From an uncultured Gammaproteobacteria bacterium (GTDB lineage Bacteria; Patescibacteriota; Microgenomatia; JALYQM01): a DNA stretch of 64,000 nucleotides. Made by a program: the position numbers and the translations under genes. The stretch covers positions 443,364 through 507,363 of the forward strand of contig CAYOFQ010000001.1 in assembly GCA_964403585.1 (NCBI GenBank), given 5' to 3'. The notes beneath the pieces were generated by a model that saw nothing but the letters and a program-made list of their open reading frames with translations, ran no database searches and was not told the DNA's origin. Positions 37,210-39,831 of the stretch are shown one piece after another. Each line of letters begins with the position of its first letter. Position 1 is the stretch's first letter.

Positions 37210-37359
37210 TAATGAAATTATACGCTAATTCTAATGGAGAAAAAGTCCCTAAAAACAAGATCTACCCGGCAGGAACGGGTTTAAGGAAAGCCATTCCTTC
37301 TATCATCGGGAAAATCACAGCTCAGAGGTATATACCCTATAGCGTAGTATTATAATATT

Positions 37360-39831
37360 ATGTATAATGCAGTTCACATGAGACGTGGCGAAGAAATTTT
37401 TGATCCAGGGCGACTTGAAATAAACCGGCAGCTGGCAATAAGTAGATTACTCCGTGCCTTAGATACCCCACATGAACGAGCATTGCGCGAACACCAACAT
37501 ACCATGCTGGAAAAACTCCACGCCTTCTTTTCTGGATCAACAGATGGCGAACCGAATACCTCGGGGTATATAAGCGCAGCTATGGGCGTCGGTAAATCTG
37601 CAGTTATGGTAACCGTTGCCGAAATTCTCGGCATGCGTACTGTTGTGCTTTCTAATAATCGAAGAGTATCAGACCAAAATAGAGCAGCCGCAGAATTCTT
37701 CACTCCTAAAATGCGAGTTAGTTCATTCGATGGACGTAAACAAGATCTGAGCGGCCAAACAATATTTTCCATTTATCCGTCAATGCTTAGTGAACTTAAG
37801 AGGAAGAGAGTAAACGGTATACGGTCACCATTTGAAGACATGGAGTTGGTGATAAGTGACGAAGTGGATACAGGACAAGGTGAAGAAACCTTCCAGATAT
37901 TCCGTGAGCTATTCCCAAATGCGTTATTTATCGGTTGTACGGCAACTCCATTCTTTGAACAAATTGAATACTATATAAGAAAAGGACTCATTAACCCAAA
38001 AGAGCGATGGGTAGGAATGTTCCGTAATGAAATCCACGAGCTTACTTTAGAAGAAGCCTGGCTACGCGAGATTCTTGCTCCGGTTGAAATTCACTTGCTG
38101 CGTACCTATACCGAAATCCCAGAGTTGGATGTATTAGGCAATGGAGAATATTCCCAACCACAGCTCGAGCTTTCTGTCGATACAACTTCACGTAACGCGA
38201 GACTAGACGCTATTATGTTAGGAATCTCTGCAATTCCTGATACTGTAAATGTTGGCCCATTAGCATTAAAAGAGCTGCGAGAATTGCATCAACGTGTGGA
38301 TGGAGAACCGACTTTGATTCATTCGGTATCGATTGGACATGCTGAAAGAGTCGCCCGACGATTACGACAAGCTGGACTGCGAGTTGGCACGATCCACAGT
38401 AAGATTACTGATGATGCAGATAGACCAATCCGAGACGAGGATAGAAACGAAGTTATTGACGAACGAATCGCCAATTTCGAAGCAGGGAAAATTCAGGTGC
38501 TCACTGGCGTTAACATGTTAGGGCGAGGCATTGATGTTCCGTCAGCTCGCGTAGCTATTCATACCAAGCCAAGATTGTCCGCGCGGGCTTTGATTCAGGA
38601 ATTTGGTCGAATCACCAGACCTTCACCTGAAACAGGAAAATTAATGGGTTTTGCAATCCAATTTGTAGACCAGTGGAGTATGTTAGCGCAATCGGGACTG
38701 TTGATACCTAACGTTATAAAACTGGATTTCATTGAAACTCATAAACAAAGATATTCTTCTCTTCGGAGGAAAGTAGAACCAGGAGAAAAAATACCAGTGG
38801 ATGCGACGAAAAGAAATTATGTCGAAGTAACGGGAGTACATGTCGAATCCTTATTGGGGGAGGTAGAGATTATTGAAACGGTCCGTAATAGATTTTTTAA
38901 TGCCACTCCGGAGGAAATAAATCGTGCGATACACCATATATATACTATCAATGCAGAAAAAGACCCTGATTGTGGCATATATGTCCTTACTAAAAAAGTT
39001 CTCCGCCAACTTCCAAGTAAAATTCCAGTCGAAGTCACCGATCGACTATTGAAAGTTATCAAGGACAATCGTGAAACATTACGAACTATGGATGGTGATA
39101 CTGACCTTAGCGGTCGTTCAAGAGCACAAATCCAAGGCGAAATAGATGAAGCCACTCGCGCAGTTATTGGGGTTAACTTACGAGCAGTTATGACCGTTGC
39201 TGATTACTTTGAGGAACTGCCTGCCGAAGACTATGATGATATTTTTATGACTGCCCTGAGTGCTATGGATGGTGTGATTAAAGGGAGTTACTCAAGCATT
39301 AGCAGCACAATAAACGGTCAAGCCAAAGAGCGAGTTCGTGAATACCTTGCCATGAAGGAAAACGTCCCGGAGTTTGTTGTCGAATATGCTAAGTTTCGGC
39401 TCATAATTGAAGAAGTCGGTAAGTTAGTTGAGGATGACACCTTAGAAGGAGAACGCCTCGACCGACGTAAAATTGAAATTGTTATGAAAACTGGTATTAG
39501 TCTTGATCATCTTGAAGATTATATTTCGTACCTCGTCAAAATGCAGTTTGCAATAACAAAATCGTATCAACAGGAGGGGAACGAAGGAGAGGAAGTCCGT
39601 AACGAATTAATACGTGCAGATATTGATTGGGCCCTCTCTAAATGTACTGAAACCGAACAAAAAGTGTTGAAGTTACGATTCGGACTTGATGATGGGCACC
39701 AACGAACACTAGAAGAAGTTGGGAAAGAATTTGGTGTTACCCGCGAGCGTATTCGCCAAATTGAAGTGAAGGTGTTACGTAAGCTCAGACATCCACAATT
39801 CAAACGTCGATTACACCCGCATATTGAATAA
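37360..39831 (+). CDS. SF2 helicase fused to sigma-70-family C-terminal module (degenerate region 2, region 3-like, canonical region 4.2)
   Basis: Helicase motifs [38 protein letters not shown]; C-terminus …[46 protein letters not shown] is near-identical in pattern to RpoD region 4.2; upstream [12 protein letters not shown]…[19 protein letters not shown] aligns by eye to regions 2.1-2.2 without the conserved Y/WW. Confidence 0.7.

Follow-up and report, generated by a model that had tools for sequence, protein, structure and literature searches.

The locus and its predicted start

The helicase-sigma ORF occupies 37360..39831 on the + strand of the window, the whole 64,000-nucleotide stretch of DNA that was analysed. 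With the stop codon counted within these coordinates, it forms a single frame of 823 aa, as the original prediction had it. The real start is likely to be Met7 at 37378, which was also proposed earlier and would give a protein of 817 aa. Homologs show the same spacing between their start and the first conserved motif (LExNR) as is measured here from Met7, which supports a start at this position. Residues are numbered here on the 823-aa frame.

Two -10-like hexamers are located at 37351..37368 on the + strand. The first is a TATAAT at 37351-37356, and the second (37361-37368, read off the sequence as TGTATAAT) consists of a TG followed by TATAAT. The latter had been described as an extended -10 element overlapping the start of the ORF. 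This description does not hold, as the TG directly touches the hexamer and the spacing of a canonical TGnTATAAT is absent. By consensus match, the region is probably a promoter, from which the mRNA would begin at or close to the ATG at 37378 with little or no leader. Homolog genes in L056 and L058 carry a perfect TATAAT 7-8 nt 5′ of their ATG and are without a Shine-Dalgarno sequence.

The SF2 motor and connector

The N-terminal part of the protein had been predicted to hold SF2 motifs I, II, III and VI, and the positions agree with the domains detected here. The first RecA-like lobe, at aa 41-198 (37480..37953, +), is matched by Pfam ResIII with an E of 1e-11. Within it are motif I (aa 74-83; 37579-37608, +), motif II with its DE at aa 167-168 (within 37849-37866, +) and motif III, GCTATP (aa 192-197; 37933-37950, +). 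The second RecA-like lobe, at aa 304-420 (38269..38619, +), is matched by Helicase_C with an E of 6e-11 and includes motif VI (aa 413-420; 38596-38619, +). The lobes are separated by a family-specific insert at aa 199-303 (37954..38268, +), in which W217, E232 and R278 are invariant. Across 38 aligned homologs, G78, K79, D167, E168, A195, T196, Q413 and R417 are also invariant.

The intact motifs I, II, III and VI and the two-RecA-lobe fold place the motor with the SF2 ResIII enzymes (HsdR/RadD/XPB-like). Apparently it is an SF2 dsDNA translocase of this type, predicted to be active. Its closest motors are the repair and restriction enzymes RadD, HsdR and SauUSI, found by fold searches and, for RadD, by NCBIfam (E 4e-9). 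It was not accepted as the RadD (YejH) equivalog, scoring 35.2 bits with NCBIfam NF053632 against a cut-off of 720. The motor is followed by a connector at aa 440-587 (38677..39120, +), which is mostly helical in the AF2 model and family-specific; no domain was recognised in it and a Pfam scan of these residues gave no match.

Sigma region 4

The sigma4 domain, with regions 4.1-4.2, spans aa 742-822 (39583..39825, +). Pfam Sigma70_r4 (PF04545) matches aa 758-811 with an E of 9e-17 and 60.7 bits, the cut-off being 24.1, and SigA chains in the PDB match at an E of 1.7e-21. Both matches bear out the near-consensus region 4.2 that had been reported. Over the HTH, approximately 42 of 47 residues (~89%) match those of a solved SigA. 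Positions 39739-39765 on the + strand encode the recognition helix, TRERIRQIE. R797, R799 and Q800 are among the best-conserved C-terminal positions, being kept in 26-32 of the 38 family members. In sequence, the domain is almost identical to a housekeeping sigma4, including the RERIRQ helix predicted to contact the -35 element. Elsewhere, sigma4 is a promiscuous module; it is joined to several other helicase types, and 9-10 repeats are present in the protein P0073.

The sigma2/sigma3-like region

Residues 588-736 are probably a sigma2/sigma3 homolog, as judged by profile-profile comparison. The sigma2-like part is a three-helix unit at aa 588-667 (39121..39360, +), assigned from hhalign collinearity, shuffle controls and collinearity with P0110, a relative described below. 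It contains NLRAV (2.1-like), DDIFMTAL (2.2-like) and a 2.3/2.4-like stretch without aromatics. The sigma3-like three-helix unit is found at aa 671-736 (39370..39567, +); its boundary at Pro670 is conserved and it includes a 3.1-like HTH. When aa 585-745 were aligned with eight group-1 sigmas in hhalign, they were collinear with regions 2.1-3.1 at a score of 34.0 (P 1.3e-4). The controls reached a maximum of 18.9 in 200 column shuffles and 25.2 in 200 block shuffles, and 16.6 with reversed sequences. NCBIfam TIGR02937 covers aa 601-811 with 44.6 bits, the cut-off being 42.9. The family signatures N606, K/R608, D/E627, Q630 and P670 correspond to the sigma signatures NLR, D..Q and IPVH, and the AlphaFold helix pattern (pLDDT 85) fits the order sigma2-sigma3-sigma4. 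A model from the single sequence reached a pLDDT of only 37 and was not used, and structure-based fold searches of the 823-aa protein returned listings filled by helicase matches.

HMM searches of the whole protein detected ResIII, Helicase_C and Sigma70_r4, but not Sigma70_r2 or r3. Neither Sigma70_r2 (PF04542) nor r3 was matched in aa 540-744 even at E<=10, and nothing significant was found for residues 588-736 in Pfam or the PDB with HMMER. Searches of the PDB for sigma2/sigma3 in the middle region, by phmmer or with the family profile, were also without a match. The middle regions of 25 relatives gave two weak sigma2-type matches only, to Sigma70_r2 and PhyR_sigma2, which come from two relatives. 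As HMMER is blind to both regions in Pfam and the PDB, the sigma2/sigma3 assignment is regarded as probable, not proven. The likeness to regions 2.1-2.4 and 3.1 that had been noted by eye is thus supported by the collinear profile-profile alignment but is weaker than was proposed, as no Pfam r2 or r3 match accompanies it.

The original prediction that the residues for -10 melting and recognition are replaced agrees with the hhalign alignment, in which per-column confidence is low. In what we take to be E. coli sigma-70 numbering, the replacements are Y425 to I, F427 to S, Y430 to N, W434 to Q, Q437 to E and T440 to R, with W433 opposite a gap. The Y430-aligned column holds Tyr or His in 26 of the 38 family members and is the sole such residue kept by the majority; the 823-aa protein has N652 at this position. 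Similarly, the D..Q signature of region 2.2 is kept by the family majority, while the 823-aa protein has M630. Without the family Tyr/His and Gln, this copy is more degenerate than its relatives, and clamp-helix binding is least secure for it.

At the place of region 3.2, the sigma finger, there is a short low-confidence loop at aa 734-741 (39559..39582, +), recognised from the AF2 model and a gap in the hhalign alignment. A pLDDT below 50 is confined to these 8 residues, which lie between long helices. By the hhalign gap, group-1 sigmas have ~13 more residues in this linker, so canonical holoenzyme geometry is uncertain. The span from sigma3 to sigma4 on core RNAP may be too long for such a linker.

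Family and relatives

The fusion is shared by ~60 cluster representatives of 28-36% identity, which are collinear over the motor, the middle region and sigma4 in one ORF. They were recovered by exhaustive HMMER search, a word-index homology search having missed them. Candidatus Levybacteria are among the Patescibacteria MAGs with a member, and the family is chiefly one of Patescibacteria (CPR) and further uncultured lineages. An ortholog search had been suggested, and its result speaks against an assembly-made fusion. That assembly or annotation joined two separate genes, one for a helicase and one for a sigma, is a negligible prospect, given ~60 independent divergent homologs from many samples in which a single ORF runs collinearly through the junction. 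An identical protein also occurs in another assembly, Logan SRR16481187, which may derive from the same reads.

The sequences indicate that these helicase-sigma proteins are a conserved, undescribed family. The literature reachable by search holds no description of a helicase-sigma fusion, as the original prediction assumed; the databases, however, contain this family in unannotated form as well as other helicase-sigma4 architectures. Related helicases without sigma4 were set aside. They comprise approximately 50 loci of Gaiellales, Solirubrobacterales and other Actinomycetota from the genome scan and a similar number of metagenome contigs, two cases having been checked directly.

P0110 is a helicase joined to a fully canonical sigma (Pfam r1.2, r2, r3 and r4) and is collinear with the family. 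It is a singleton, and the genes around it are defence-like (SIR2_2, PDDEXK_4). An RNAP alpha-CTD follows sigma4 in at least two relatives (2 of 38 by Pfam), and 2-3 such members are detectable overall. P0006 is one carrier (Pfam E 3e-10) and P0019 is likely another, as indicated by a local phmmer comparison with the alpha-CTD of E. coli. The 823-aa protein has no C-terminal extension. In one relative, a canonical rpoD lies on the same contig, 3 kb away, and the sigma4 of the fusion is close to that of the host RpoD, by eye and by a BLAST match of the neighbour.

Gene neighbourhood

The neighbours of the gene for the 823-aa protein encode adh_short, nitroreductase-like, Crp, cupredoxin and similar proteins. 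For the PriA gene, the closest relatives with a name are 'MAG: bacterium' at 78% and Chloroflexota at 42-48%. No neighbour genes are common to the loci except for synteny within Levybacteria and one cupredoxin gene. As the neighbourhoods are not conserved, this appears to be a solo gene. Neither defence-island context nor conserved partner genes were found at six full-length loci. Searches of phage and viral collections gave helicase-only or sigma4-only matches and no fusion. A truncated paralog in L004 is in tandem with a Fic gene.

Comparison with known systems

The C-terminal ~240 residues appear to form a collinear sigma2-sigma3-sigma4 module of a sigma-70-type factor, the N-terminal part of which would have been replaced by an SF2 motor. 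The order of domains is that of the group 1/2 sigma-70 factors (RpoD/SigA), and the family keeps signatures of the NLR, D..Q and IPVH type. In contrast to RpoD/SigA, region 1.1/1.2 was not detected in the 823-aa protein, other residues stand at the positions for melting and -10 recognition, the 3.2 finger is shortened and ~580 residues of SF2 motor and connector stand at the N-terminus. Compared with HsdR, SauUSI, RadD and XPB/Rad25, the protein has no recognisable nuclease, zinc-finger or XPB RED/thumb elements, and the sigma module takes the place of their own targeting domains.

RapA/HepA, Mfd and HelD are likewise motor ATPases, and docking on RNAP is plausible here also. The docking part differs, being a sigma homolog instead of the RapA N-terminal domain, the Mfd RID or the HelD insertion. 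Membership of the RapA family, with its N-terminal domain and SNF2_N, or of the Mfd family, with its RID/TRG elements, was rejected from the Pfam matches and the best 25 of 47 NCBIfam matches. With sigma54 and its AAA+ activators, or with TFIIH XPB, the likeness is a functional analogy only, that of a non-melting initiation factor with an ATPase, although the motor fold is XPB-like. Unlike the sigma54 systems, the protein has no homology to sigma54 or AAA+ activators and unites motor and sigma in one polypeptide.

Sigma-like domains are also re-used outside ordinary sigma factors in MzaA and PhyR. MzaA is a sigma-70-family component of the MZA anti-phage system. Its match (NF041931) is limited to aa 702-822, at 85 bits against a cut-off of 800. 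MZA membership was rejected, as there is neither a full-length NF041931 match nor an MZA partner among the nearby genes. The sigma4 of PhyR, which also carries a receiver domain, is degenerate, unlike the canonical sigma4 of the 823-aa protein.

Proposed role and alternatives

It is tentatively proposed, as a possible reading more than a probable one, that the sigma-derived module docks a dsDNA translocase at -35-type promoter DNA and/or RNAP, which would make the protein an initiation factor or a remodeller that depends on ATP. The partners expected for sigma4 are this promoter DNA and/or the beta-flap, and the 2.1/2.2 signature in most relatives may still be able to bind the beta′ clamp helices. 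Sigma region 1.1 is normally next to the downstream DNA channel; the motor would occupy its place, beside this channel. ATP hydrolysis there could power movement along promoter DNA, its twisting or its opening, or a remodelling of the initiation complex. Promoter opening driven by ATP and an RNAP remodeller had both been put forward originally and agree with the present results, qualified by the profile-profile basis of sigma2/sigma3, the degeneration of this copy and the short linker. The protein would work alongside ordinary RpoD, not as its substitute.

A narrower form of this proposal is that a sigma-70-family factor without strand-separating residues of its own opens promoters by a built-in XPB/HsdR-like translocase. 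Sigma4 would anchor at the -35 element and beta-flap while the motor pumps or twists DNA into RNAP. This form is considered unlikely as it stands. To our knowledge, no sigma-70-type factor needs ATP for promoter opening, and we know of motor-driven opening only with sigma54 (AAA+ activators) and eukaryotic Pol II (TFIIH-XPB).

RapA competes with sigma for core. The protein could be an RNAP recycling or rescue factor of the RapA/Mfd/HelD type. The sigma module would then be a mere handle on core, with no part in promoter choice or opening; it would compete with RpoD for the flap and clamp, and the motor would free stalled or post-termination polymerase from DNA. Such a pure handle would not need the -35-contacting RERIRQ residues, which are among the most conserved, and some relatives add an alpha-CTD, a promoter-DNA module. 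No RapA or Mfd family is among the best 25 of 47 NCBIfam matches, and Pfam detects no RapA or Mfd-RID domain. A recycling or rescue role is therefore judged fairly improbable, marginally more so than an enzyme which acts on DNA independently of RNAP, itself doubtful to the same degree as motor-driven promoter opening. In that alternative, the sigma4 HTH and decayed sigma2/3 would be a sequence-specific anchor that holds a RadD/HsdR-like translocase at certain sites for repair, recombination or loop extrusion. The nature of the nearest motors as repair or restriction enzymes (RadD, HsdR, SauUSI), the promiscuity of sigma4 (on several helicase types and repeated 9-10 times in P0073) and the strong degeneration of sigma2/3 are in its favour. 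The sigma2-sigma3-sigma4 order and several core-binding signatures are nevertheless kept in ~60 divergent relatives, and sigma4 is near the host RpoD sigma4 in the one comparable relative.

A role in defence or surveillance is held to be very unlikely. The sigma4 copy would act as a decoy which senses phage anti-sigma or RNAP-hijacking proteins, with the helicase as effector or transducer. MzaA is matched over the sigma3-sigma4 part (PADLOC, NCBIfam), the motor weakly matches the defence helicases PbeA and DpdF, P0110 adjoins SIR2_2 and PDDEXK_4 genes, and the truncated paralog lies in tandem with a Fic gene. Against this, the six full-length loci are without conserved partners or a defence island, the MzaA match falls far below its cut-off, and the domain searches detected neither a nuclease nor another effector.

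Implications

Under the proposed docking role, the family is a candidate for a sigma-70-type initiation factor coupled to ATP, or for a new class of RNAP remodellers that dock through sigma. If promoter opening by the motor were true, bacteria would have a counterpart of TFIIH-XPB, and the open complex could be reached by a third route, beside spontaneous sigma70 melting and sigma54/AAA+. Even the conservative reading, in which a DNA motor carries a targeting domain derived from sigma, is a new architecture for both protein families, and sigma4-helicase fusions recur in several forms. The transcription machinery of Patescibacteria (CPR) and the other uncultured lineages is almost unstudied, and these proteins may reveal a new way in which bacteria couple ATP to RNA polymerase or to the DNA of promoters.

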